Below are positions 3,422-29,372 of a stretch of DNA of 34,677 bases, one piece after another (position 1 is the stretch's first letter; each line of letters begins with the position of its first letter). Both the position numbers and the translations under genes were made by a program. The stretch is from a virus (lineage: Duplodnaviria > Caudoviricetes). The DNA lies in the IMG/VR virus record IMGVR_UViG_3300020044_002928, positions 1-34,677 of that record, one strand, 5' to 3'. Under the pieces are notes generated by a model. The model saw only the letters and a list, made by a program, of their open reading frames with translations, did no database searches and was not told the DNA's origin.

Positions 3422-4116
3422 TGGCAAACGTAAAGATCCCTGACCTTACAGCAGCTTCAACCCCGCTTGCCGGGACTGAGCTTTTTGAAACGGTTCAGAG
3501 CAGCTTCAGCCGCAAGGTGTCGGCCTCTGACATTGCGGCAAGCGCGACGAACGTCCGGACTGTTGCGACTGGTGGTACTGGCGCTGCAACGCTGACAGGC
3601 TATGTCAAGGGTAATGGTACGTCGGCGATGACCGCTGCTGCCACGATCCCATTTGCGGATCTTGCGGGTCGGGCCTTTGCTCAGCCGTCAAGCACAGCCG
3701 ACCAGACTGGTAACATCGCTGCCGCTACTGCCGTGACGTTTAACACTGATTTAACAGGAACTGGCGTCAGTGTCGTTTCCAGCACTCAGGTTACGTTTGC
3801 TGCTGCGGGCACATACATGCTGGCCCCGTCAATTCAGTTCGCTAACTCAGCCGCAGCCGACCACACCGCCACTATCTGGTTCCGCAAGAACGGCACCAAT
3901 ATCGCTAACTCTGCCACGATTATTAGCATTCCCAAGTTAGCCGATGGCGGCGCAGCTGTGTTCTCCTTGAGTTTCTTTGATACCGTTACGGCAGGTCAAT
4001 ACATTGAGATGATGTGGCTTCCGAGTAACATTGCTGTGACGATTGAGCATACAGCAATCGGCGCAATTGCTCCTGCTGTCCCATCAGTAATCCTGCCTGT
4101 GATGCGGATTGCATAA
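3421..4116 (+). CDS. Short fibre/spike with C-terminal C1q/BclA-like jelly-roll
   Basis: N-terminal MANVKIPDL fibre motif, VATGGTGAAT fibre repeat, and C-terminal VTF...AGTYML..SIQF...IWFRKNG...AGQYIEM pattern. Confidence 0.6.
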   Translation: MANVKIPDLTAASTPLAGTELFETVQSSFSRKVSASDIAASATNVRTVATGGTGAATLTGYVKGNGTSAMTAAATIPFADLAGRAFAQPSSTADQTGNIAAATAVTFNTDLTGTGVSVVSSTQVTFAAAGTYMLAPSIQFANSAAADHTATIWFRKNGTNIANSATIISIPKLADGGAAVFSLSFFDTVTAGQYIEMMWLPSNIAVTIEHTAIGAIAPAVPSVILPVMRIA

Positions 4117-4478
4117 TGATCGAGCAGCTCATCAGTCGCGTATTCTACGCCCGCAACCTTGCTCACTTTGCTCATTGGCGCGCCAAGGGTGATGGCAGCT
4201 TTGCCAAGCACATGGCGCTGGGCGAGTTCTATGACGGCGTGATCGATACGATTGATCCGCTAGTGGAGGCTTATCAGGGTGCGTATGAGTTGATTGGAGC
4301 GATTCCAGTTCCCGGCGAAATGCAAACAGATATACTGAAGTGCCTCGAAGCTGACGCCGAATGGATCGAGAAGAATCACGACAAGATCTCCAAGGGAAAC
4401 CGCGCCATTGGGAATCTGATCGACACGGTGACCGGCGTGTATCTCTCTGCAATCTATAAGCTGCGGAACCTACGGTAA
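4116..4478 (+). CDS. Ferritin/Dps-like four-helix protein (DUF5856-like)
   Basis: HFAHW....SFAKHMALGEFYD...D.LVEAYQG and C-terminal IYKL match the Dps-like pattern. Confidence 0.7.
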   Translation: MIEQLISRVFYARNLAHFAHWRAKGDGSFAKHMALGEFYDGVIDTIDPLVEAYQGAYELIGAIPVPGEMQTDILKCLEADAEWIEKNHDKISKGNRAIGNLIDTVTGVYLSAIYKLRNLR

Positions 4479-4705
4479 TGGACATGAACACTCTCTTCAC
4501 CATTCTGGGCTTTGTCATCACAGCCCTCAGCTTTATTGGCGGCCTGATTACCGTCTGGGTTAATCTTACTAACAAGCTGACTCTGCTTGAGGCACGTCTT
4601 GGCTTTGGTGACGAGAAGTTTAGCGGCATCGACGAAAAGTTTCGGGAGGTGATGATACACCTGCGCCGGATTGAGGATAAACTGGACAACAAGGCGGATC
4701 GTTGA
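4478..4705 (+). CDS. Small membrane protein, holin/antiholin candidate
   Basis: One N-terminal hydrophobic helix followed by a charged coiled coil ending RIEDKLDNKADR. Confidence 0.55.
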   Translation: MDMNTLFTILGFVITALSFIGGLITVWVNLTNKLTLLEARLGFGDEKFSGIDEKFREVMIHLRRIEDKLDNKADR

Positions 4706-5526
4706 TGAAACGCTTTCTAATAGGTTTTGTGGCAGTAGTTAGCTCGGCATCTATGGTGCTCGCGCAAGCGGCGCCAATATCCTATGTTTACGACACTACG
4801 ACCAACAGCACGTCGAACAACACCAACACCAATAACAACACGTCGGCCAGCACGTCCACCAACACAAACGTGAACACCAGCACATCCACCAACACGAACA
4901 CCAATTATAATATCAATTCTGGCACGATGACCAACATCAACCAGAACACATCGGCCAGCACGTCTGACAATACCAACAGGAATATCAATACCGACACGAG
5001 CAATAGCACGATCAACCAGAGTGTGAACAGCAAGTCCGACAGCACGAACCGGAACATCAACACCGACACAAGCACGATCAATAGCACGGCTTTGACGAAC
5101 AACGTCAACCAGAACAACAACGTCAATGTGAACGACAGTAAGTCCACCAGCTACAGCGAGAACGTATCGCGTCAGGTGATTGACCAGAACATTAAGTCGC
5201 CGCCGCCAAGCGCCATCGCGCCATCGATGATGTCCTACAGCCAAGACCTCTGCACCACCGGGCAATCGGGTGCAGTGCAGACGCAGATCATCGGCTTGTC
5301 GGCTGGCCGCACTGTGCGTGACCAAAACTGCGAACGGATGAAACTGTCTAAGACCCTGTACGACATGGGTATGCGCGTCGCCGCTGTGAGCCTCCTGTGC
5401 CAAGACTTCCGCGTCTTTAGGGCAATGGAGATGGCCGGAACACCGTGCCCATTCTTGGGATTGATTGGCGAGGAAGCCCGCGCCGCGTGGACCGAAAACG
5501 TCGAGCTTCGCCCTGTTGAGAAATAA
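4705..5526 (+). CDS. Exported protein: signal peptide, Asn/Thr/Ser low-complexity stalk, four-Cys C-terminal domain
   Basis: ATG at 4705 (TGATG overlap). MKRFLIGFVAVVSSASMVLA|Q signal peptide. C-domain SPPPSAIAPS..DLC..NCER..LLCQD..GTPCP. Confidence 0.75.
   Translation: MKRFLIGFVAVVSSASMVLAQAAPISYVYDTTTNSTSNNTNTNNNTSASTSTNTNVNTSTSTNTNTNYNINSGTMTNINQNTSASTSDNTNRNINTDTSNSTINQSVNSKSDSTNRNINTDTSTINSTALTNNVNQNNNVNVNDSKSTSYSENVSRQVIDQNIKSPPPSAIAPSMMSYSQDLCTTGQSGAVQTQIIGLSAGRTVRDQNCERMKLSKTLYDMGMRVAAVSLLCQDFRVFRAMEMAGTPCPFLGLIGEEARAAWTENVELRPVEK
4795..5160 (+). repeat. Coding low-complexity region (AAC/ACC/AGC codons; NRNINTDTS and NTSASTS each twice)
   Basis: Visible directly in the DNA and in the translation. 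Confidence 0.8.
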
Positions 5527-6943
5527 GACATACGCTTTGCAGGTTATTCTGCTGGCTTGCGCAACACCCGTTTTCGCGCAGACCTACGAGCCTGCCTTAA
5601 TCCCACCGCAAATCCTCGGCGCGCCTACGACGATGGCACCCCTTAATTTGGGGGACGATAACACACGTAACGTGGCTCTTGGCTTTGAGTTTGAATATTG
5701 GGGCCAGACGTTCACCGACGCTTGGGTGTCGAGCAATGGCTTTGTGTCGTTCCAGAGCGGCAATCATTTGTGCTGCAATGGTCGGCCTATCGAACTGGCG
5801 CAGCGCAACACGATATACGGCTACTGGTCAGACCTAATTAGCTACACCGGCAACCCGTACTTCCGCCGCGACGATGGCTCGATCCTCTTCGGCTGGTACG
5901 GCGTAAACGAATACGGCACGAACAACAGCAGCACCTTCGAGATCGGCCTATTTGCCGATGGCACGATACAACTGAATTACGGCAACCTCGGTTTCTCAGG
6001 TGGGAGAGACTTTACCGCAGGCATTACTGGTCCAACTGCGAACGATAACATCACCCTCTTCTACGGGCGAAACGCGCAGTTTCTTCAGAATCAGTCCGGC
6101 ATCCTGTCGTGGGTCGGGGCAACCGCTACCGTTGACTGCAACGTGACGCCTATGGACCCAAGCTGCCCTCCAATCAGTATCGACGCGGTGCCTGACCCTG
6201 TAGCTGCGATTGCCGAGGCCGTTGAGCAGAGCGTTGAGCTTGAGCCGGAAGAGATCGAGGAGGTTCGCGAGACGGCTGTTATAGCGCTGGAGCGGGCGGA
6301 AGAATCTGTTGCTATTGCTGAGGCGACAGAGGCTGTAGAAGAAGCTGAGGTTGCAGCAGAGGCCGTTGTAGATGCGGATGTGGATGAAGCGGTCGAGCGT
6401 CTGGAACCAGACGAGGTTGCCGCACTGGCAGCCACCAGCTCAGACTTTACCGAAAGTATGCAGCAGCAAGACACCGTCATACAGGAGACGCAAGACGGAG
6501 CATCGTCGTCGTCAGGTACGTTTACGGGGCAAGTGCGATTCGATAACTCATTCGGTGGCTCGTTCGTGCAGGGACCAAGCGTTTCTTCTGCGCAGAGCGC
6601 GTCACCATTGGACATGGCAATCTCGGCAAGCAGCCCAATGTCTATGGCTAACACCGCTGAAGTTCTGGGCCTTGGGTCGCCCGCGCCTGCATCCTCCGGT
6701 GGAAACGCGCCTCAGACCGATAGTGGAATATCTGAGGGTGAGAGCGAAACCATCGCAGCGATAGGAACCGTTCCGGGCTTCGCCGCGTACACGCAGGCAT
6801 CCCTGCAAGATAGGGCTGACTTTTACGCAATTCGTGATATATACCGCAGACGTAGGCTGCAAGACGCAAACTTTGAGATGTATCGTATGATGCAAACGAA
6901 CGATGCCCGATGGCAGGAGATGGTAGATGAGCAGTACAGATGA
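5516..6943 (+). CDS. Exported protein with NIDO (nidogen-like) domain, acidic helical linker and compact C-terminal domain
   Basis: Likely TTG start at 5516 gives the signal peptide MRNKTYALQVILLACATPVFA|Q. GDD....ALGFEFEYWGQTF..AWVSSNGFVSF...IYGYWSDL...TFEI.LF.DG.I..NY is a NIDO-like signature. Confidence 0.7.
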   Translation: MRNKTYALQVILLACATPVFAQTYEPALIPPQILGAPTTMAPLNLGDDNTRNVALGFEFEYWGQTFTDAWVSSNGFVSFQSGNHLCCNGRPIELAQRNTIYGYWSDLISYTGNPYFRRDDGSILFGWYGVNEYGTNNSSTFEIGLFADGTIQLNYGNLGFSGGRDFTAGITGPTANDNITLFYGRNAQFLQNQSGILSWVGATATVDCNVTPMDPSCPPISIDAVPDPVAAIAEAVEQSVELEPEEIEEVRETAVIALERAEESVAIAEATEAVEEAEVAAEAVVDADVDEAVERLEPDEVAALAATSSDFTESMQQQDTVIQETQDGASSSSGTFTGQVRFDNSFGGSFVQGPSVSSAQSASPLDMAISASSPMSMANTAEVLGLGSPAPASSGGNAPQTDSGISEGESETIAAIGTVPGFAAYTQASLQDRADFYAIRDIYRRRRLQDANFEMYRMMQTNDARWQEMVDEQYR

Positions 6944-7448
6944 GGATCCCAAGGTCGCCTTCGATGAGAGCGGCTTTAGTTTTAAAATCGGTGGACTGAG
7001 CAGTGGCAAGATTGCCATTATCTTCGCGGCTATATCGACCATCGTCGGCGGTCTCTGGGCTGGCTTCCAAGTGTATCAGCAATTCCTGACCATGAAGGAA
7101 GTTACTGCAGCGTATGTGCCGCCTGATTTGTCAGGTATCAACAGCCAGATTTCAGTGCTGAATGAGCGCGTTACAAGCGTCGAGCGTTTGACCAAAGGCA
7201 ACAGCGAGGCGCTGAACTACTTGACCGGCTCAATATCTAGCAGCGTGGGCGCAACACGGCAGACGGTTGACGCGGTGTCAAGCAGTGTTAGAAACAGCGA
7301 CGCGCAGAACATGCAGATGCAGCGCGCTATCATAGACCAACTGCGTGAGCAGGACAGGGAACAACAGCGTCGTATCAAGGAACTTGAGACTGAGACCGCT
7401 GCACGTATTCAAAAGACGCTGGCGAACCCGCTGGCCGGGAAGGACTAA
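6927..7448 (+). CDS. Single-pass membrane protein with long C-terminal coiled coil
   Basis: AGGAG RBS. Hydrophobic IAIIFAAISTIVGGLWAGF, then YVPPDLS and a heptad-rich helix ending LANPLA. Confidence 0.75.
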   Translation: MSSTDEDPKVAFDESGFSFKIGGLSSGKIAIIFAAISTIVGGLWAGFQVYQQFLTMKEVTAAYVPPDLSGINSQISVLNERVTSVERLTKGNSEALNYLTGSISSSVGATRQTVDAVSSSVRNSDAQNMQMQRAIIDQLREQDREQQRRIKELETETAARIQKTLANPLAGKD

Positions 7449-7450
7449 AG

Positions 7451-7963
7451 ATGGAAGATAAACTAATGGACGCGCGCATCAAGGCGCTTCTTATGGCGGC
7501 CCGCACGATGGCGTTCGTCATCTGCGCAATCACCTGCGCGATGATTGTCGGACTGTTCGTATCGAATGAGATTATCGACAACAAAGACGTATTCGGCTTG
7601 CTGTCATACGTCATGACTTCGGTTGTCGGCGCTGTTGCTGGCTCCTACGCCACGCTTATGGGAATGAAGGGCGAGTTGGTTCCGCCTCCGCCAGAAGATC
7701 GCGACGATCCTGAGCCGGAGCCTGTGGCCCCTGTAGCGCCTGAACCAGATCCGCTGCCGCTCACACCTGACATGGTTGCGCCAGCACCAAAGGCATACGA
7801 CGATCCGCAAGCCACTGTATTCATCGACGAACCTGAAGACGACGATGATGACGATGATCTAGAGCCTTGGGAGAAGTACCGCAACGACCTGCGCTATGAC
7901 GCCAACGGCGACGGCGTAGTCGATGAACTTGATTTCCCTGATTGGCGGAGTGCTGGCAAATGA
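7451..7963 (+). CDS. Two-TM membrane protein (holin candidate) with Pro/Asp-rich tail and EF-hand-like loop
   Basis: Two hydrophobic helices, a PEPEP linker and a DANGDGVVDELD loop. Overlaps the endolysin start. Confidence 0.6.
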   Translation: MEDKLMDARIKALLMAARTMAFVICAITCAMIVGLFVSNEIIDNKDVFGLLSYVMTSVVGAVAGSYATLMGMKGELVPPPPEDRDDPEPEPVAPVAPEPDPLPLTPDMVAPAPKAYDDPQATVFIDEPEDDDDDDDLEPWEKYRNDLRYDANGDGVVDELDFPDWRSAGK

Positions 7964-8574
7964 GCATGATTGAACTTCAGAAGAAGATTGGCGTAACGGC
8001 TGACGGGGCTTTTGGCCCCGGCACGCTGAAGGCCGCCGCATCCTACTTCAAACTAAACAAGAACCGCGCTGCCCACTTTTTTGCTCAGTGCGCGCACGAG
8101 AGTGGCAACTTCAAGGCCTTCAGTGAGAACCTGAACTACGGTGCCAAGGGTCTGCGCGGCATCTTTGGGAAGTACTTCCCGACTGACGCGCTGGCCAAGG
8201 CATATGAGCGTCAGCCAGCCAAGATTGCTAACCGCGTCTATGCCAACCGTATGGGCAATGGCGACGAAGCGTCTGGCGAGGGTTTCGCATACAAAGGTCG
8301 AGGCCCCCTCCAATTGACGGGCAAGAACAATTACCGCGCATTCGGTAAGTACATTGGACGCGAACAGGAGATTTTGGACAATCCAGACCTTGTGGCTACC
8401 GAGCTGGGTTTTGAAAGCGCCTTGTGGTTCTTCGACGCAAACAAGCTATGGTCAATCTGCGATCAGGGCATTAATGACGCTGCCATTCTGCAGCTCACCA
8501 AGCGGATCAACGGGGGCACACACGGCCTCGAAGACCGCAAAGCTAAGACCAAGAAGTACGCTACTTGGTTGTAA
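7960..8574 (+). CDS. Endolysin, glycoside hydrolase family 19, with short N-terminal peptidoglycan-binding motif
   Basis: AHFFAQCAHESG, ENLNY, YKGRGPLQLTGKNNY and TKRINGG..GLEDR motifs. N-terminal LQKKIGVTADGAFGPGT. Confidence 0.93.
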   Translation: MSMIELQKKIGVTADGAFGPGTLKAAASYFKLNKNRAAHFFAQCAHESGNFKAFSENLNYGAKGLRGIFGKYFPTDALAKAYERQPAKIANRVYANRMGNGDEASGEGFAYKGRGPLQLTGKNNYRAFGKYIGREQEILDNPDLVATELGFESALWFFDANKLWSICDQGINDAAILQLTKRINGGTHGLEDRKAKTKKYATWL

Positions 8575-8585
8575 GGAGACAAGTT

Positions 8586-8780
8586 ATGCTTAATCTAAAG
8601 AAACTTATCCAAAAAGAAGCTGAGAAGGCAATCTCGAAGAAGGCTGTAGGCAAGATTCTGCCAATGGAAAACGCGACAAATCTAACGATGATGGCTAAGA
8701 TTATGAACGTCAAGGGCAGGTTGGCGGTGGCAATCGCTGCTGTCACAGCTTTAGTTGCGGCTGTTTTAGAATTGATGTAA
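8586..8780 (+). CDS. Small basic protein with C-terminal hydrophobic helix (possible lysis accessory)
   Basis: AAGGAG RBS before ATG 8586; C-terminal LAVAIAAVTALVAAVLELM. Confidence 0.65.
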   Translation: MLNLKKLIQKEAEKAISKKAVGKILPMENATNLTMMAKIMNVKGRLAVAIAAVTALVAAVLELM

Positions 8781-22595: not shown

Positions 22596-25500
22596 ATGGC
22601 AAACTATCGATACACATATGACTACAACGGAAGACGCTATGAGATAGACGCTCCAAAGGGGTCTACAGCAGCTGACCTTCAGAGGATTGTGGAGGGCTCT
22701 TCGCGAGGCAAAGCTCCTGTCTCTAACAGGCGGGACACGCGGGACACGCGGGCTGCTGCGCCAGATCCAGCTGTTGAAAATGACCGAAAGAAAACCGCCG
22801 CAAGCATAGCCAATGCACAAAAATCAATTGCCAGTTTAACCGAGCAGCTGCAGAACCCTACTATCCAGTCTAATCCAGATAGGTATCGTGCAATTGAAGC
22901 CGCAATTAACGGTCAGAAAGAAGCGCTTAGGGTTAATCAAAACAGACTTGGGTACTTAGAAAAGACTGGGAAGCTGCCGCCGGGCCTAACCGCGACTGGC
23001 GGGATATCTGATTTTCTTCGCGGCATTCCCCGCACCCTTACGCAATTTCCGGGCCAAGTGGTCGAAGGTGTTTCTGGTTTAATCGGCTCTGGTCTTCAGG
23101 CAGTAGGCGCGGAAGACACTGGTAAGGCAATATCTAACTTCGGTACTCGTGCACAAAAGGCAGGCACCGAGTTTGCTGAAGATGTATTTGGCGGACGAAG
23201 CGAGGCTACCCAGTTTTCTCCTACTGCAAGATTTATTGCAATGGGTGGAGAAGGCGTGGGAAGCACGTTGCCATACGTCATCACAAGTGGCCTTGGCGGT
23301 ACTGCTGCTAACCTATCGAAGACAGGTCGCGCCACTAGGTTGGCAGGCGGCGTGCCAACTGCTGAGAAGGTCGCTCAAAGAACCAACTATCTTATTGCTG
23401 GGGCTCAAGGATCACAGCAAGCTGGTCAGCAGGCGCAGGAGTTCCGTGAACAGGGTGGCACCGTTTCGCCACTTCAAGAGCTTGCAGCTCGCAGTGTTGG
23501 CACGGGCCTTGGCCTTACTGAGGTCGGCGTAGCAAATCGTATGATTGAGAGGTTGCCGGTCTCTGCGCGCACCTCAGCTATTGACAGTGCATCTAACCTT
23601 GTTGAACGTGCAACCCTTGGGCGCGTCGATCCAAAGGCGGCATTTGATTCTGTCAAAAGAGCTGTAGCTGGTGTTGAAGCAAAGGCTCTTGGGCGGACTG
23701 CATTAAGCACGCTTGAAGAGGGTTTGCAAGAAGGTGCTGTACAGCTTGGTCAGAACCTTGCTGCCAAGGCTATCTATAACCCAAACCAAGATGCTTTCGA
23801 GGGCGTGGGAGAAAGCGCATTACTTGGCGGTGTCGTTGGCGGTACTATCAGCGGCGGCGTTGAAACCACGCGCAAAGTCCTTGGCTCTAAGCCTGATGAT
23901 ACAGGCGCTCCACCGCCGCCACCTCCGCCTTCAGGCGTGCCACCAACCGCTCCTCCGCCTGCAGAAATGGGCGCTCTCGCTGAAGCTCTTGGCCCGGTCG
24001 GCGGCAAGATTACTCTTCAGGATGCTTTCGGCCCGCAGGAATACACATTCGAAGGCTTCGACAAAAAAGGTAAGGTCGTCCTCACGGATGTTGACGGCGT
24101 AACATTATCTGAAGATCCTGATTGGGTTCAGGGTGCTATTAAGTCTGGCGTCGTTGAGTCCGAAGAGGGCTTGGGTGGCATGGCCTTTAGCACGGGCATT
24201 GAAGAGGAAGCGGCTGCGCCGCCTCCGCCACCGCCTACTGAGAAGCCGAAGTTCACTCTTGAGCCTGCGCCTACGACTGGCGATGAGTTCGTCTCAAACA
24301 TCCTTGATAGCAAGCCGGTGGCCCCATCGGTATTCTCTCCGGATGTGGCTCCACCGATTTTTTCACCGCCTACTGAGAAGCCCAAGTTCACCATTGAGCC
24401 CGCGCCTGTAGCAGAAGAGCCTGAGCTTCCGCCTCCGCCACCAGAGCGCGTGCGGACTGTCACAACTCCCGGCGGCTCTAAGGTAAACACTGCCTTCGAA
24501 GTCGTTGATGCTGCCAATCTGACAGCGGCCACAGGTGATCTACAGAACCGCGACCGCAGCCGGGCTTCCACTGATATACAGGTGCAAGACATCTTCTCAA
24601 ACTTTGACCCTGAGCGTCTTGGTGAGAGCCTTGAGAGTGACCGTGGCTCTCCGATTGTTGGCCCTGATAACACCGTCGAGAGCGGCAACGGTCGCGTCAT
24701 GGCGATCAACAAGGTGTACGACGAGTCCCCTGAGAAGGCTGATGCCTATCGCAATTTTATTGAAGGTCAGGGCTTCGACACATCTGGGCTTGAACGTCCG
24801 GTTCTGGTGCGCCGTCGGATTGATCGGATGACGCCTGACCAGCGCTCTAAGTTCGTGCGTGAAAGCAACATGGATACGAAGCTGCAGCTCAGCACAAGCG
24901 AGAAAGCGCAGACTGACGCAGCGTCCCTCACGCCTGATGTTATGGGCCTCATGGCGTCTCCAGACGTTAGCGCCTCGGCCAATCAAGGCTTTGTGCGCGC
25001 TTTCCTATCGAAGCTACCAACCCAAGAGCAGGCTGCGTTCCTTGATAAAGAAGGGCGTCTATCGGCTGACGGTATTCGCCGCCTTCGTACCGCCGTTAAA
25101 TCATCGGCATATGGTGATGCTGACCTGATCAACACGCTTGATGAGTCACAGGACAATAATATCAAGAGCATCGGTGGTGCGCTTGAGGATGTTGCTCCGG
25201 CATGGCGTCGCATGCTTGACGCAATCAGGGACGGCGAAGTCGATGCGGAGATGGACACGACCAAGCAGCTCGTTGAGGCAGCCAAGATTGTGCGTGATGT
25301 CCGCAATAAGGGAATGAAGATTGGAGACTTCCTCTCGCAGCAGGACGCCTTTAACCCGCTCGATCCTGTAACTGAGCGGTTCATCCGTTCGTTCTATAAT
25401 GAAAGCCTTGGTCGTGCAGCAGGGCGCGAAGCCATTGCTGATACGCTTAATAAATATGCGCGTCGAGCTGCAGAGCAGACAACGAGTGAGGGGTTGTTTG

Positions 25501-28500
25501 GGCGAGAGTCAATGTCGCCCACCGATATCCTTGACGGCGCTTTGGATGAGCGCGGCACGGGTGCTGCGCAGTCCAATATGTTTGCCAGTATCCAGCCCAT
25601 CTCGCCCCGGCGTCGGGAGGAAATCCTTGATGAAGGTGGGAAAATTCCATCGCTATCTCGTGGCATTACCAAGCTCAAGAAACTTTGGGCTGACGGTAAG
25701 ATAGACGCAAAAGAGTTTGCTTTTGAGGTGGCTTCGTATTCCAATTTTATTGAGGACATGAAGAACTGGAAGCGCTGGGAGAACATTGGAAAACTGAAGG
25801 TTCGCGGTCCCGACAGAATACGCGAAGTCTTACTTCAGGAGAAACGCAGGGGGAATCTATCTCAGGAGGAAGCTAATTTTGCTGAGTGGTTTATTCTGCG
25901 TAATGAACACTTGCTCGATGACCTTGGTATTTCTGTAAAAAAACCGTCTGATAAGATTGGGACGTCAGGATATTACGAAGTTTTGTCTCGCGTCATGTAT
26001 TTGATAAAAGGCCATACGAACGACGGCACAGCGGTCCATGAGATCATGCACCACCTTGAGCGCATGCTGCCACAGGACATTCGCATGGCGATTAAGCGCG
26101 CTTGGTCGAAAGAGTTAGATAGAGTTGAGCGACTTCCTTATAAGGGAAAGAGTGAAAATGATGCTATGTTCTTTAAGGCCATCCGTGCGTTCCATAATCA
26201 AGAGAGCGTCAATCTGAATGGCGAGGATTTAAACCCAAGTCAGGCGTTTAGGTTTGCTACTAATTTAATTGCAGACGGAAAAGTTGACGGACGCCTTTAT
26301 CAATATGTGAACCCATCAGAGTTCTGGGCCGTTAACGCCACCGAAATTCTGCAGGGCCGATTTGATGTGCAGGGTTCGCTGCTTGGCCGTCTGAAGAATT
26401 GGCTGCGTGAGCTTTCCATAAAGATAAAAGGACTCTTTAAGCTAGATTCAAATGCACCGATCATCAAGGCGCTGGACAGCTTGGCAAAGAGTGACGGTAA
26501 GTTTGTTTCCAACGAGATGCTTGAAGACAAGCCGGGGGATTTCAGGGACATCGCACGCGCTGAAGAGCAGACTGAAGAAGGTTTCGAAGAAGGTCCAGTA
26601 TTGGAGGCGGCACCAGTAAAGCTCAGCCGTGTTCGCCAGTCCGTCAATCGCCTGCGCACCAGCGCAACTTGGAGCAACATCGCAAGCCAGTTCTCTGGCG
26701 CTCGTGCCGTTGATAACTGGCTGGCTCGTTCTTACGGTTTGGAATCCCTTCCTGAAACGGACTCGTTCTACAGCGCATTCGAAACCTATCTTTCAAAGAA
26801 GAACGGTAAGCTGCAGCAGCTACGCCGCAAGTATGTCGATCCAATCGATGATGCGGTGGGCGATGCCATCAAGAACGGCGTCACGATGGATGACATCAAC
26901 GACGCTATTCAGGCACGCGGTGCTGCTGAGCGCAATGCTGCTATCGCTGAAATCAACGAGGACATGCCCGATGGTGGCTCCGGCCTGACGAATGCAGAAG
27001 CGGCTGCCAAACTCCGTGAGCTGCAGGCGTCCGGGAAGATGCGTTACATCAACCGGGTGGTGAGACTGCATGACCGCCTGCGTGATGAAACGCAGAGAAT
27101 AATGGTTCAAGATGGCCTTGTCTCGGCTGAGACGATGGCTGAGTGGAAGAGAAAGTATCCAAACTATACACCGTATAAGGGCTGGGCTCCCGCTGGCGAC
27201 ATGGCTGTCGATGGTCAGGAAGATCCGCATGCTGATTACGGCTCCTATGATAAGGGCGTTCCTGTCTATAGTCGCGTGGCTGGACTTCGTGCTAAGCCGA
27301 TTAAGGCAGCGAAGGGACGTTCGTCTCAGGCGGCTAACTCCCTGTACAACATGATCGCTGATGCCGAGATGTTCTTGGAGATGGGCCAGCGCAACCAGAT
27401 CGCGCTTCAGCTGGATAGCACCTACCAGAGCGACCCTGATGCGTTCACGGGCCTTCTCAAAATCTATGACAAGAATAACCCCAAGATCGTCAAGGGTAAG
27501 GCCGTCAAGATTACAGACGAGCGCGCCTTCAAGAACGGCATTCGCGGCTTCAAGAATGGTGAGCCGTTCATCATCGATACCGCACCTAATGAAGAGGGGC
27601 AGGCAGTCCGCCGGGCGTTCACTAACCTCGATCCTACGCAGCTCGATAAGTGGTTCGGAGGTTTTTACAAGGTTATGGGCGTTATGCGCGGCCTGCACAC
27701 CCGCTTCAACGCAGCCTTCTGGCCTCGCGAGTTCCTGAGAAGTATCTCTGACGCCGTTGGCAATGTATACACGGAGAAGGGTCGCAAGCGCAGCGCAGCC
27801 TATGGCAAGAGCGCGGCAATGAAGACGTGGAAGTATTCATGGGATCCAGCGACGCAGGCTGGCGTCTTTGCGCACCTAATTAATAGAGATGCGGGCAGCG
27901 GGCGTGTCGCTCACGTAAAGGCGTTGACAGAAGAGATGATTGTCAACGGCGGCGCTGCTGGCCAAGAGTTTGCTGAACGTGCTGAGCGCGTCGCCGAGCG
28001 CATGGAGCAGGAGCTGAAGCGCATGACTGCGACTGGCGTCAAGGCTGGATACTTTGAAACCAAGGCCGGCTTTGCAAAGCTCATCAAGGTCGTCGATGGC
28101 ATCAATGATTTCGTGGACATCGTGCCCCGCGTTGCTGCTTATCGTGCGCTCACTGAAGCTGGTGTTTCTCCGAAGGACGCGGCGCAGATAGCATTGCGCA
28201 GCACACTCGACATGAGCAAGCGTGGCCGCTTCGGTCGTGTGATCGATAGTTTCTTCTGGTGGACAACTCCATCGATAACCAACCTGACCAAGAAGGTTAC
28301 GGGTCTGGACAGCTCCACCTATCGCAAGCTGGTCCTTGCTCAGCTGTCTATTGGCTTTGCTCTTGGGATGCTTAACATCATGAACGCGCCTGATAGCGAC
28401 GATGATGGTGAGGACGATTACAGCCAGCTCCCTGAGTGGCGGAAACTCGCATACCTACACGTTTATTACAGCCCGGATGAGAAGCCTTTCACAATGCCGA

Positions 28501-29372
28501 TTGGGTTCCTCTTCCTCTTCGAACGCTACGTCGGCGGCAAGATGGCTGAGGTTCTCGCTGGACAAATCTCTGACGGCAAGGCTGCAGTGGACATCATGAC
28601 GGCATCTCAAGATGTTGGGGCTGCGTTCCTAGCTTCGCTTTCGCCTGTGGTCCGCAGCACTGAGGCGCGAACTCTGGTCCCAAGCAGCATCGCTCCAATT
28701 TGGGATCTCAACCTCAACGAGAGCTTCTTTAAGGCACCGATCTATAACGAACCGTTCGATGACAGTGAGGCTCAGGCATCGCGTGTGAAGCGCACTACGC
28801 CAGAGGTATATAAAATAATCGCGGAGGGCCTTCAGGAATCGACTCTTGGATACGGCAGAATACCCGGCGGCATCGATGTGTCTCCTGATCAGATCAAATA
28901 CTTTGTTGATCAGTATTCCGGTGGTGTTGGTCGCCTTGTTTCGGGCGCTGCTGAGGGTGACATAGAGGCAGTCAAGAAACTGAACCCGTTCTACTTTGAT
29001 CCGAAGTTGGTAGAGTATTCTCCAATGGGCAGATTCTTTGAGCGCGATCCGGAAATGAAGAGGGCTATCGCAGCTGACAAGATGGCTGACGAAGGCGATA
29101 GCTCGGAGCGTGATTTCTTAGAAAACACAAATCCCGTGTCGGTGGATTCTGGAGTGATAAGCGCGTTCAAGGATGCCGAAAAAGAACTGAAGGATCTGCG
29201 CAAAGACGCTAATGATATGGATCCAGATGAGTATCGGGCTGAGCAGCTACGTATCATGTCGGACTTCAACCGGGCGTACAACGACGCAAAGAAAGGTAAT
29301 TATTCTTACACGTCGAGCGCAGATGAAGAGGAAGAAGATTTCATCCCAGAGGAAGAGGAAGGCGACGAGTAA
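22596..29372 (+). CDS. Large polyvalent virion/ejection protein (DdrB-like ParB, zincin metallopeptidase, LPD38-like C-terminus)
   Basis: 2258 aa, AGGAG RBS. LQNRDRSR...DPERL...GSPIV...VESGNGR (~24447-24880); HEIMH at 26037 with downstream EFWA; C-terminal DDYSQLPEWRK...LVPS..APIWDL..NESFF.APIY. Confidence 0.8.
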   Translation: MANYRYTYDYNGRRYEIDAPKGSTAADLQRIVEGSSRGKAPVSNRRDTRDTRAAAPDPAVENDRKKTAASIANAQKSIASLTEQLQNPTIQSNPDRYRAIEAAINGQKEALRVNQNRLGYLEKTGKLPPGLTATGGISDFLRGIPRTLTQFPGQVVEGVSGLIGSGLQAVGAEDTGKAISNFGTRAQKAGTEFAEDVFGGRSEATQFSPTARFIAMGGEGVGSTLPYVITSGLGGTAANLSKTGRATRLAGGVPTAEKVAQRTNYLIAGAQGSQQAGQQAQEFREQGGTVSPLQELAARSVGTGLGLTEVGVANRMIERLPVSARTSAIDSASNLVERATLGRVDPKAAFDSVKRAVAGVEAKALGRTALSTLEEGLQEGAVQLGQNLAAKAIYNPNQDAFEGVGESALLGGVVGGTISGGVETTRKVLGSKPDDTGAPPPPPPPSGVPPTAPPPAEMGALAEALGPVGGKITLQDAFGPQEYTFEGFDKKGKVVLTDVDGVTLSEDPDWVQGAIKSGVVESEEGLGGMAFSTGIEEEAAAPPPPPPTEKPKFTLEPAPTTGDEFVSNILDSKPVAPSVFSPDVAPPIFSPPTEKPKFTIEPAPVAEEPELPPPPPERVRTVTTPGGSKVNTAFEVVDAANLTAATGDLQNRDRSRASTDIQVQDIFSNFDPERLGESLESDRGSPIVGPDNTVESGNGRVMAINKVYDESPEKADAYRNFIEGQGFDTSGLERPVLVRRRIDRMTPDQRSKFVRESNMDTKLQLSTSEKAQTDAASLTPDVMGLMASPDVSASANQGFVRAFLSKLPTQEQAAFLDKEGRLSADGIRRLRTAVKSSAYGDADLINTLDESQDNNIKSIGGALEDVAPAWRRMLDAIRDGEVDAEMDTTKQLVEAAKIVRDVRNKGMKIGDFLSQQDAFNPLDPVTERFIRSFYNESLGRAAGREAIADTLNKYARRAAEQTTSEGLFGRESMSPTDILDGALDERGTGAAQSNMFASIQPISPRRREEILDEGGKIPSLSRGITKLKKLWADGKIDAKEFAFEVASYSNFIEDMKNWKRWENIGKLKVRGPDRIREVLLQEKRRGNLSQEEANFAEWFILRNEHLLDDLGISVKKPSDKIGTSGYYEVLSRVMYLIKGHTNDGTAVHEIMHHLERMLPQDIRMAIKRAWSKELDRVERLPYKGKSENDAMFFKAIRAFHNQESVNLNGEDLNPSQAFRFATNLIADGKVDGRLYQYVNPSEFWAVNATEILQGRFDVQGSLLGRLKNWLRELSIKIKGLFKLDSNAPIIKALDSLAKSDGKFVSNEMLEDKPGDFRDIARAEEQTEEGFEEGPVLEAAPVKLSRVRQSVNRLRTSATWSNIASQFSGARAVDNWLARSYGLESLPETDSFYSAFETYLSKKNGKLQQLRRKYVDPIDDAVGDAIKNGVTMDDINDAIQARGAAERNAAIAEINEDMPDGGSGLTNAEAAAKLRELQASGKMRYINRVVRLHDRLRDETQRIMVQDGLVSAETMAEWKRKYPNYTPYKGWAPAGDMAVDGQEDPHADYGSYDKGVPVYSRVAGLRAKPIKAAKGRSSQAANSLYNMIADAEMFLEMGQRNQIALQLDSTYQSDPDAFTGLLKIYDKNNPKIVKGKAVKITDERAFKNGIRGFKNGEPFIIDTAPNEEGQAVRRAFTNLDPTQLDKWFGGFYKVMGVMRGLHTRFNAAFWPREFLRSISDAVGNVYTEKGRKRSAAYGKSAAMKTWKYSWDPATQAGVFAHLINRDAGSGRVAHVKALTEEMIVNGGAAGQEFAERAERVAERMEQELKRMTATGVKAGYFETKAGFAKLIKVVDGINDFVDIVPRVAAYRALTEAGVSPKDAAQIALRSTLDMSKRGRFGRVIDSFFWWTTPSITNLTKKVTGLDSSTYRKLVLAQLSIGFALGMLNIMNAPDSDDDGEDDYSQLPEWRKLAYLHVYYSPDEKPFTMPIGFLFLFERYVGGKMAEVLAGQISDGKAAVDIMTASQDVGAAFLASLSPVVRSTEARTLVPSSIAPIWDLNLNESFFKAPIYNEPFDDSEAQASRVKRTTPEVYKIIAEGLQESTLGYGRIPGGIDVSPDQIKYFVDQYSGGVGRLVSGAAEGDIEAVKKLNPFYFDPKLVEYSPMGRFFERDPEMKRAIAADKMADEGDSSERDFLENTNPVSVDSGVISAFKDAEKELKDLRKDANDMDPDEYRAEQLRIMSDFNRAYNDAKKGNYSYTSSADEEEEDFIPEEEEGDE
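24231..24407 (+). repeat. Two 42-bp imperfect direct repeats (PPTEKPKFTxEPAP) in a Pro-rich linker
   Basis: Copies at 24231-24272 and 24366-24407. Confidence 0.85.

Follow-up and report, generated by a model that had tools for sequence, protein, structure and literature searches.

The closest described counterpart of the locus reported here is the phage curli, or type VIII secretion system (T8SS), module of pelagiphages (CsgG-CsgF-CsgA/B), for which the accessible parts of Wittmers et al. (PMC9599517) propose a role in aggregation, superinfection defence or uptake. Our locus is a cassette of three genes, A, B and C (hereafter the trio), at positions 4705-7448 of the IMG/VR-type virus record IMGVR_UViG_3300020044_002928; the whole stretch of 34,677 bases, with a completeness of about 63%, was analysed and is called the window. 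Its virion genes are of podovirus type (adaptors and ejection proteins, by their Pfam and PHROG labels), and the trio, its parts and its immediate neighbours lie on the plus strand. Set against the accessible text of the two papers on phage curli (PMC9599517, PMC9004378), both are phage-encoded, Sec-dependent envelope modules with the same hosts and two genomic slots in common. We propose that the trio is an optional, exchangeable module for a surface-display device spanning the envelope of infected Gram-negative cells, a reading that we consider to have an even chance of being right. It is the best-supported of those weighed here, ahead of superinfection exclusion, a lysis aid, an uptake pore, a periplasmic scaffold and a virion part, and such a device would resemble curli or an autotransporter in its working while belonging to neither.

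An earlier note on the window had claimed three overlapping genes at these positions, and they are indeed filled by three open reading frames (ORFs) overlapping head to tail, by 11 nt between A and B and by 17 nt between B and C. Gene A (4705-5526, 273 amino acids, ATG at 4705) has the layout described in that note: an export signal (a predicted Sec signal peptide at 4705-4764, its cleavage site read by eye), an Asn/Thr/Ser stalk and a four-Cys domain, which forms a collar and a hairpin. Gene B (5516-6943, 475 amino acids, likely TTG start at 5516) encodes an export signal, a swappable head, acidic and Ser/Gly spacers and a conserved tail, while gene C (6927-7448, 173 amino acids) encodes a single transmembrane (TM) segment, a coiled-coil-like body and a C-terminal NPL motif. 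The export signals claimed for A and B were predicted, by an in-house heuristic rather than by SignalP, in 74 of 78 non-redundant A and 72 of 80 B proteins against 45 of 400 background ORFs. Pfam has no family for any of the three proteins, and in NCBIfam A and C match low-complexity or coiled-coil noise only. A promoter and terminator scan gave counts at shuffle level (4 against 4.3 and 8 against 6.0), and the RNA libraries covered, three of four runs listed, contained short pieces from relatives only, which do not demonstrate transcription.

The three genes travel together. B and C follow A in 57/57, 59/59 and 65/65 IMG/VR loci with at least 3.5 kb of downstream sequence (three queries), these loci being drawn from the best 80 of 600, 594 and 210 matches, redundant and to be counted as few clades, and the B and C profiles having been built from the same loci. 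Co-occurrence and synteny were found in other phages, and the same succession occurs in 17 of 22 loci from GTDB. Of 11 annotated regions read, 10 presented A, a long exported protein and then a protein with one TM segment and an NPL or NPM end; small genes intervene in some of them, and RSP15 has A alone. The order is kept in aquatic phages of podo-, sipho- and T4-like type, some of them cultured pelagi- and roseophages; carriers comprise the podoviruses HTVC023P and HTVC115P, the T4-like Mosig, an autographivirus and the roseophage CRP-207, and the trio is held as hypothetical proteins in HTVC023P (gp45/46/48), Mosig (202-200) and CRP-207 (gp75-73). Searches of the accessible literature found no description of it.

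A belongs to a very large family. Relatives of its Cys domain number 4,606 at 90% clustering and 3,795 at 50% identity, almost all of them viral. The profile of PHROG 20531 (function unknown) matches residues 76-249 of A (E 4.4e-14), making A a member of this family, whose known members (JWAlpha gp25, RSL1 ORF070) are solo, unannotated A proteins without B and C. In 50,697 annotated phage records, the window's A found relatives in 12, and more were found with distant queries, while tblastn in the same records detected no B and one C. The cultured hosts of A-bearing phages are all Proteobacteria, and a survey of alphaproteobacterial genomes found A in 2 of 401. A GTDB scan with the RSP15-type A confirmed 0 of 21 loci; the main-type A yielded 46 loci on contigs of metagenome-assembled genomes (MAGs) or single cells assigned to many phyla, which we read as binned phage contigs and did not use for host range.

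The trio and the curli module alternate at the same genomic position. A curli-bearing locus (L403) and two trio loci (L092 and L096) have 11 and 10 upstream genes in common and the same three downstream genes, and the upstream genes common to L403 and L092 include an Rz/Rz1-like pair. Between these flanks lies the curli module in L403 and the trio with three small genes in L092. Besides CsgG, the L403 module holds two small TM genes and what we take, from motifs and from PMC9599517, to be CsgF, curlin-like, FecR-like and cyclase-like proteins. A second T4-like lineage repeats the pattern, L357 and L343 (curli) having flanks in common with L118 and L120 (trio), with more intervening genes. No such swap was seen at the slot of Mosig, where HTVC008M and Melnitz have no trio and carry CsgG elsewhere in the genome. 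CsgG (PF03783) was found in none of 40 trio records, of which 14 are IMG/VR records at least 90% complete and 8 are named genomes, and in both of two controls. Conversely, A was absent from all 17 CsgG records (3 near-complete) and from all 82 CsgG loci. We also observed two small TM/coiled-coil genes accompanying the curli module (L403:6746-7848, L357:6811-7340, L343:6792-7312), which parallel the C-like single-TM genes.

The low-complexity stalk of A (4792-5190; 133 amino acids, 70% N/T/S) varies between 8 and 360 amino acids in relatives and is N/Q/G-rich or collagen-like in distant members. It is followed by a conserved small-residue segment (5191-5250; PPxSAxAP, PVxTAxAP in the family) before the first Cys, a candidate pore-threading linker; by an amphipathic beta-hairpin (5251-5331) bracketed by Cys183 and Cys209; and by a helical collar (5332-5523) with Cys232 and Cys248. 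AlphaFold2 (AF2) predicts a long hairpin and four helices; predicted local distance difference test (pLDDT) scores exceed 90 in the core, and the N-terminal part is disordered. The spacing of the hairpin is invariant (25 residues between its bracketing Cys in 148/148 sequences), and in alignment numbering one face presents S53, Q57, G62, S64 and G66, each conserved at 91-98%, while the hydrophobic face consists of F61, L63, x65 and W69, bracketed by F61 and W69.

A is predicted to self-associate through its helical collar. A three-copy model, a case outside the calibration of the tool, scored 0.47 against 0.00 for the best control. Of the reference cases, 20 of 30 true homo-pairs reach the mark for a complex, as does 1 of 23 monomers. 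Contact agreement between runs was at least 90%, partner pLDDT was at least 71, and the interface runs head to tail through the collar helices. In a covariation analysis of 603 A sequences (effective number 170) the pair L79-D99 ranked second (z 6.8), and it is among the closest inter-chain contacts of the model. Fold searches with the A domain gave no usable match (best E 2.2 for Foldseek against the PDB, best Z 3.5 for VIA, and only uncharacterised phage proteins in BFVD), which is no proof of novelty, and sequence searches of the PDB with the A profile and the B-tail profile returned nothing.

Natural variants of A bear on its topology. An OmpA_C domain follows the A domain in 24 of 28 proteins matched by one A-domain query, five of them also having collagen repeats before the domain, and such repeats reach about 220 amino acids; because of these OmpA_C fusions, the C-terminus of A probably faces the periplasm. 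A hydrophobic helix ends 11 of 76 A proteins. In the CRP-207 clade, a lipoprotein of 71-85 amino acids encoded just upstream of A keeps the collar helices and lacks the hairpin (29 of 80 CRP-207-type loci), as if a lipid had replaced the hairpin as anchor. From these variants we infer that the collar lies beneath the outer membrane and that the hairpin is the likely anchor, which suggests that the stalk is outside; OmpA_C, the C-terminal helix and protein C would then be alternative inward tethers. A stalk-A-OmpA gene also occurs in a non-phage context, among cellular genes of the cultured Novosphingobium humi. A search for long A fusions gave one match among 7,992 scored, the search being crowded out by low-complexity words.

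Some further observations concern these variants. The A-like lipoprotein, unannotated in the CRP-207 record, also occurs at L090:1725-1940 and L091:886-1101. The cellular stalk-A-OmpA gene of Novosphingobium humi lies on a plasmid (L312:5473-6741), directly behind a gene for a small, Gly/Ser-rich secreted protein (L312:5062-5463), and a similar gene follows the solo A of Agrobacterium phage JP1 (L315:4503-4937). One protein (P0274) has two tandem A domains before OmpA_C; it comes from a single contig and may be a mis-called gene pair.

CsgG is a ring of helical collars contributing hairpins to one outer-membrane barrel, and the secreted curli subunit is rich in N/Q/G/S/T, as is the stalk of A. 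However, A has no PF03783 match and neither A nor B has a curlin match in Pfam; A carries four Cys, a single hairpin and, in place of a lipobox, an ordinary signal peptide; the low-complexity stalk and the predicted ring subunit are one polypeptide; and B and C have no curli counterpart. The trimeric autotransporter adhesins (YadA/Hia, type Vc) offer a second comparison, since A likewise has a signal peptide and a variable fibrous N-terminal passenger, including collagen-like ones, and would be alike in its oligomeric anchor and in a lumen lined by small residues. In contrast to them, its anchor is central rather than C-terminal, each subunit has two strands instead of four, the strands are followed by a disulfide-bearing collar of four helices and sometimes by OmpA_C, and Pfam gives no YadA-anchor match.

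Protein B joins an exchangeable head to a constant tail. The head (5579-6181), called NIDO-like in the earlier note, is predicted by AF2 as an all-beta sandwich (mean pLDDT 89.7), and its profile matches residues 51-186 in the N-terminal region of RemA (8gl6_D; E 1.4e-10), which we take to be a Flavobacterium surface adhesin. A lead towards that name comes from ESM Atlas features (0.94, with NIDO in 12-14% of cluster members). The name is not supported by Pfam, whose NIDO model (PF06119) gave no match to the window's head and matched 3 of 33 relatives at E 0.003-0.1, below the curated cut-off. Unlike RemA, B has no type IX secretion system (T9SS) tail, and the NIDO-like head is one of several exchangeable types: it is missing in 26 of 87 B proteins with the type-1 tail, and relatives that are 77% identical over the A domain keep the B tail (about 50%) but have an unrelated head. 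Fold searches with the head had no usable match either (best Foldseek E 0.29; best VIA Z 5.4, a generic beta-supersandwich with 107 residues aligned at a root-mean-square deviation of 3.2), and this too is no proof of novelty. The Glu/Ala stretch behind the head (6182-6418), earlier regarded as a Glu-rich rod, is more likely a flexible spacer because, of its 79 residues, 28 are acidic and 3 basic and because its conservation is low, the mid-section of B being among its least conserved parts (median 40%). The conserved C-terminal part noted earlier corresponds to the type-1 tail, an aromatic segment ending in MVxxQY (6746-6940), which is retained when the head is exchanged. The heuristic flags the signal of the window's B as lipobox-like (ILLAC); among 80 B proteins it assigned 66 ordinary signals and 6 lipoboxes.

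Protein C fits the single TM anchor and coiled coil ascribed to it, with one TM segment (7011-7067, predicted N-in) and a coiled-coil-like body whose heptad bias is modest. Its relatives have one TM, then 49-160 residues and a terminal NPL, the last of which also served to select them; of 55 compared, 35 have the higher net charge on the N side of the TM and 9 have the lower charge there. The evidence points to the Cys domain of A as the outer-membrane part and to C as the part that crosses the periplasm, so that the earlier layout, with B as a periplasm-spanning rod, is probably wrong.

In the display device that we propose, A would ring up through its collar, and each subunit would insert one hairpin into the outer membrane, giving a common beta-barrel whose formation and stoichiometry are conjectural. 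C would anchor this ring to the inner membrane, the PVxTAxAP linker might thread the stalk through the Gly/Ser-lined lumen, and the tail of B and the NPL tip of C could bind the collar. B, too, would cross the outer membrane, such that the low-complexity stalk of A and the swappable adhesin-type head of B would be displayed outside the cell. Infected cells would then likely adhere to one another or to particles, an effect also proposed for phage curli, and the aggregation might bring progeny close to new hosts or shield the cell from other phages. More tentatively, and with well under an even chance of holding in this full form, A could be the founding member of a new group of outer-membrane self-displaying rings, with a barrel of one hairpin per subunit through which the N-terminal fibre of every subunit would pass. 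Such a ring, working together with a tether in the inner membrane and an exchangeable adhesin, would be an alternative to curli and unrelated to it, by which phages glue infected SAR11, roseobacter and freshwater proteobacterial cells to siblings or particles.

Several observations weigh against the display device. The outer face of strand 1 of the A hairpin is only mildly hydrophobic, with a mean KD (Kyte-Doolittle) value of 0.96 against 1.85 for strand 2, and confident hairpin contacts in the three-copy model are limited to residues 55, 64 and 70, no barrel being seen. That model lies outside the range for which its score was calibrated, the covariation is not independent of it (both draw on the same family signal), and L79-D99 may also be close within the monomer. 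A barrel with one hairpin per subunit seems too narrow to accommodate a folded B head, whose export route is unexplained, and the B tails of three clades have no detectable homology (HHalign probability at most 2.3%). The trio is not the only mode of action of A, which stands alone in 12/12 RSP15-type loci (trio in 0/12). As for curli, CsgG is confined to few lineages and its absence from trio genomes is weak evidence on its own, and the shared slots may be no more than a preferred site at which envelope genes insert. Moreover, the accessible text of Buchholz 2022 (PMC9004378) reports no clumping with the curli-pore-bearing Melnitz and proposes lysis control.

The foremost rival, unlikely in our judgement, is superinfection exclusion or receptor masking, in which an A ring, with B and C, would remodel or block the envelope against other phages and have no role in adhesion. 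The solo A genes of the lytic phages JWAlpha, RSL1, RSP15 and JP1, which lie among early and middle genes, would suit it, as would the accessory nature of the cassette and the variable B heads, which could bind different receptors. However, the trio sits in late or lysis operons, known exclusion systems mostly consist of one small protein, and the cellular A-OmpA fusions with long stalks resemble anchored surface or envelope proteins.

A role in lysis was also suggested in the earlier note, which saw no ordinary spanin pair in the window, where we saw none either, and thought of a non-canonical outer-membrane disruption device. Here C would take the i-spanin role and the o-spanin would be A or the lipoprotein paralogue of A, or else the ring would time or aid outer-membrane rupture. 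The likeness to two-component spanins (lambda Rz/Rz1; PHROG 739/812, 1152/456) lies in the i-spanin architecture of C, with its N-terminal TM and coiled-coil-like periplasmic body, in the insertion of the trio into the lysis cassettes of many phages and in the Cys-rich lipoprotein related to A in the CRP-207 clade; the hydrophobic helix ending some A proteins recalls unimolecular spanins, and phrog_812, one spanin family, occurs in only 3 of 39 whole trio records. Nevertheless, true spanins coexist with the trio: in 26 of 241 trio loci the fetched flanks include an Rz/Rz1 pair with PHROG labels (a lower bound, the seeds coming from four loci), and a close relative of the window (L042) has the same cassette of the neighbouring gene D and a GH19 endolysin, then an overlapping Rz/Rz1 pair, with the trio present. 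Spanins also stay when trio and curli alternate (L092 versus L403). To obtain a sample not biased towards the trio, loci were collected through the neighbouring adaptor gene, and 43 of 80 span the slot, the other 37 having been dropped for a missing flank; a single one carries the trio, and it has spanins as well. Thirty of these sister loci carry both D and GH19; trio and detected spanin are both missing in 21 of them, 8 have a spanin only and 1 has the trio and a spanin. The trio is an accessory insertion, and sisters with no detected spanin keep the same lysis genes without it. A, B and C match no Pfam or PHROG spanin family, while neighbours in L042, L065 and L079 do, and neither A (lipobox in 0/78 by the heuristic) nor B (6/80) qualifies as a small outer-membrane lipoprotein partner, both being large signal-peptide proteins; the A-like lipoprotein is confined to the CRP-207 clade. 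A large, variable, extracellular-type B head, moreover, has no place in the fusion of inner and outer membrane that spanins bring about once the wall is gone. On the Rz/Rz1 pairs beside the trio and the spanin-less sisters without it, we rejected the trio as a spanin substitute; the supposed replacement of spanins was not upheld, and a lysis function in any of the above forms is improbable.

Equally improbable is a nutrient-uptake pore, with the A ring as an open outer-membrane channel, B binding polysaccharide or another substrate and C as a coupling arm. The B heads are NIDO-like or carbohydrate-binding-like (record annotation and a weak CBM_4_9 match), the hosts are oligotrophic, and uptake is also proposed for phage CsgG in the accessible text of PMC9599517. 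On the other hand, the invariant tiny-residue inner face and the conserved small-residue linker of A suggest a filled lumen, and the cassette is not accompanied by any transporter or TonB partner. Still less probable is a purely periplasmic scaffold, whose components never cross the outer membrane and which would brace or hold the membranes or shape vesicles late in infection; the confident A interface is entirely in the collar, and envelope tethering is what the variants with OmpA_C, a C-terminal TM or a lipoprotein form have in common, but stalks reach 360 amino acids and collagen-like repeats about 220, and heads of RemA and carbohydrate-binding type are typical of surface proteins. That the proteins are virion components (fibre, decoration or ejected proteins), despite a late-operon position near structural genes and NIDO/CBM-type heads that could bind receptors, is very improbable given the export signals on nearly all A and B, the occurrence of the trio in podo-, sipho- and myoviruses alike and the absence of JWAlpha gp25, a solo A, from the eight virion bands described in the accessible text of PMC3915230, a comparison of low sensitivity. 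Of the earlier note's broader claim, an envelope-targeted, conserved three-gene module is supported, and of its three suggested functions the adhesin fits best.

The genes around the cassette are kept by sisters that lack the trio. To the left lies a gene encoding a TM segment and a coiled coil (4478-4705), and to the right (7451-8574) the two-TM protein D and the GH19 endolysin, the sole annotated lysis gene at the locus. The trio had been placed between a holin-like gene and a holin/endolysin pair; the endolysin is borne out by annotation, and the flanking 'holins' (4478-4705 and 7451-7963) have no Pfam or PHROG label. Gene D (7451-7963), always directly 5' of the GH19 endolysin, encodes two TM helices, a Pro/acidic tail and an EF-hand/dockerin-like DANGDGVVDELD motif; its product, without a family label, is a candidate calcium-sensing holin or antiholin. 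Behind the endolysin, gene E (8583-8780; basic N-terminus, C-terminal TM, no family label) is present in most sisters, with or without spanins. In 11 sister loci (L409, L411, L416-L418, L420, L422, L428, L429, L431, L438) the slot of the trio holds a different pair, also found in L069, L091 and L268: a 60-amino-acid Cys lipoprotein (YRYPCQDP motif) and a two-TM protein of 95-100 amino acids related to the N-terminus of D, possibly an unrecognised spanin-like or holin-regulating pair. Elsewhere in the window we noted a ferritin/Dps-like gene in the late operon (4116-4478; DUF5856, PHROG 858 'starvation-inducible regulator'), a cluster of short, very basic proteins between head genes (853-2391; DUF6321, PHROG 17747 and 14910), the like of which recur beside the trio in unrelated phages (L085, L090, L079), and a polyvalent ejection-type protein of 2,258 amino acids with ddrB-ParB and LPD38 domains (22596-29372).

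The A domain defines a very large unannotated family, almost all viral and present in cultured phages of the ocean's most abundant bacteria. The natural pairs of trio- and curli-bearing phages, such as Mosig and HTVC008M, together with a cultured bacterium carrying an A-OmpA fusion, make the question directly testable. If A does form an outer-membrane ring displaying fibres and adhesins, it would represent a new secretion and anchoring architecture. Aggregation ('sibling capture'), to date suggested on the basis of phage curli genes alone, would then have a second route unrelated to curli, and this would bear on particle formation, on the spread of phages at low host density and on recombination in SAR11.

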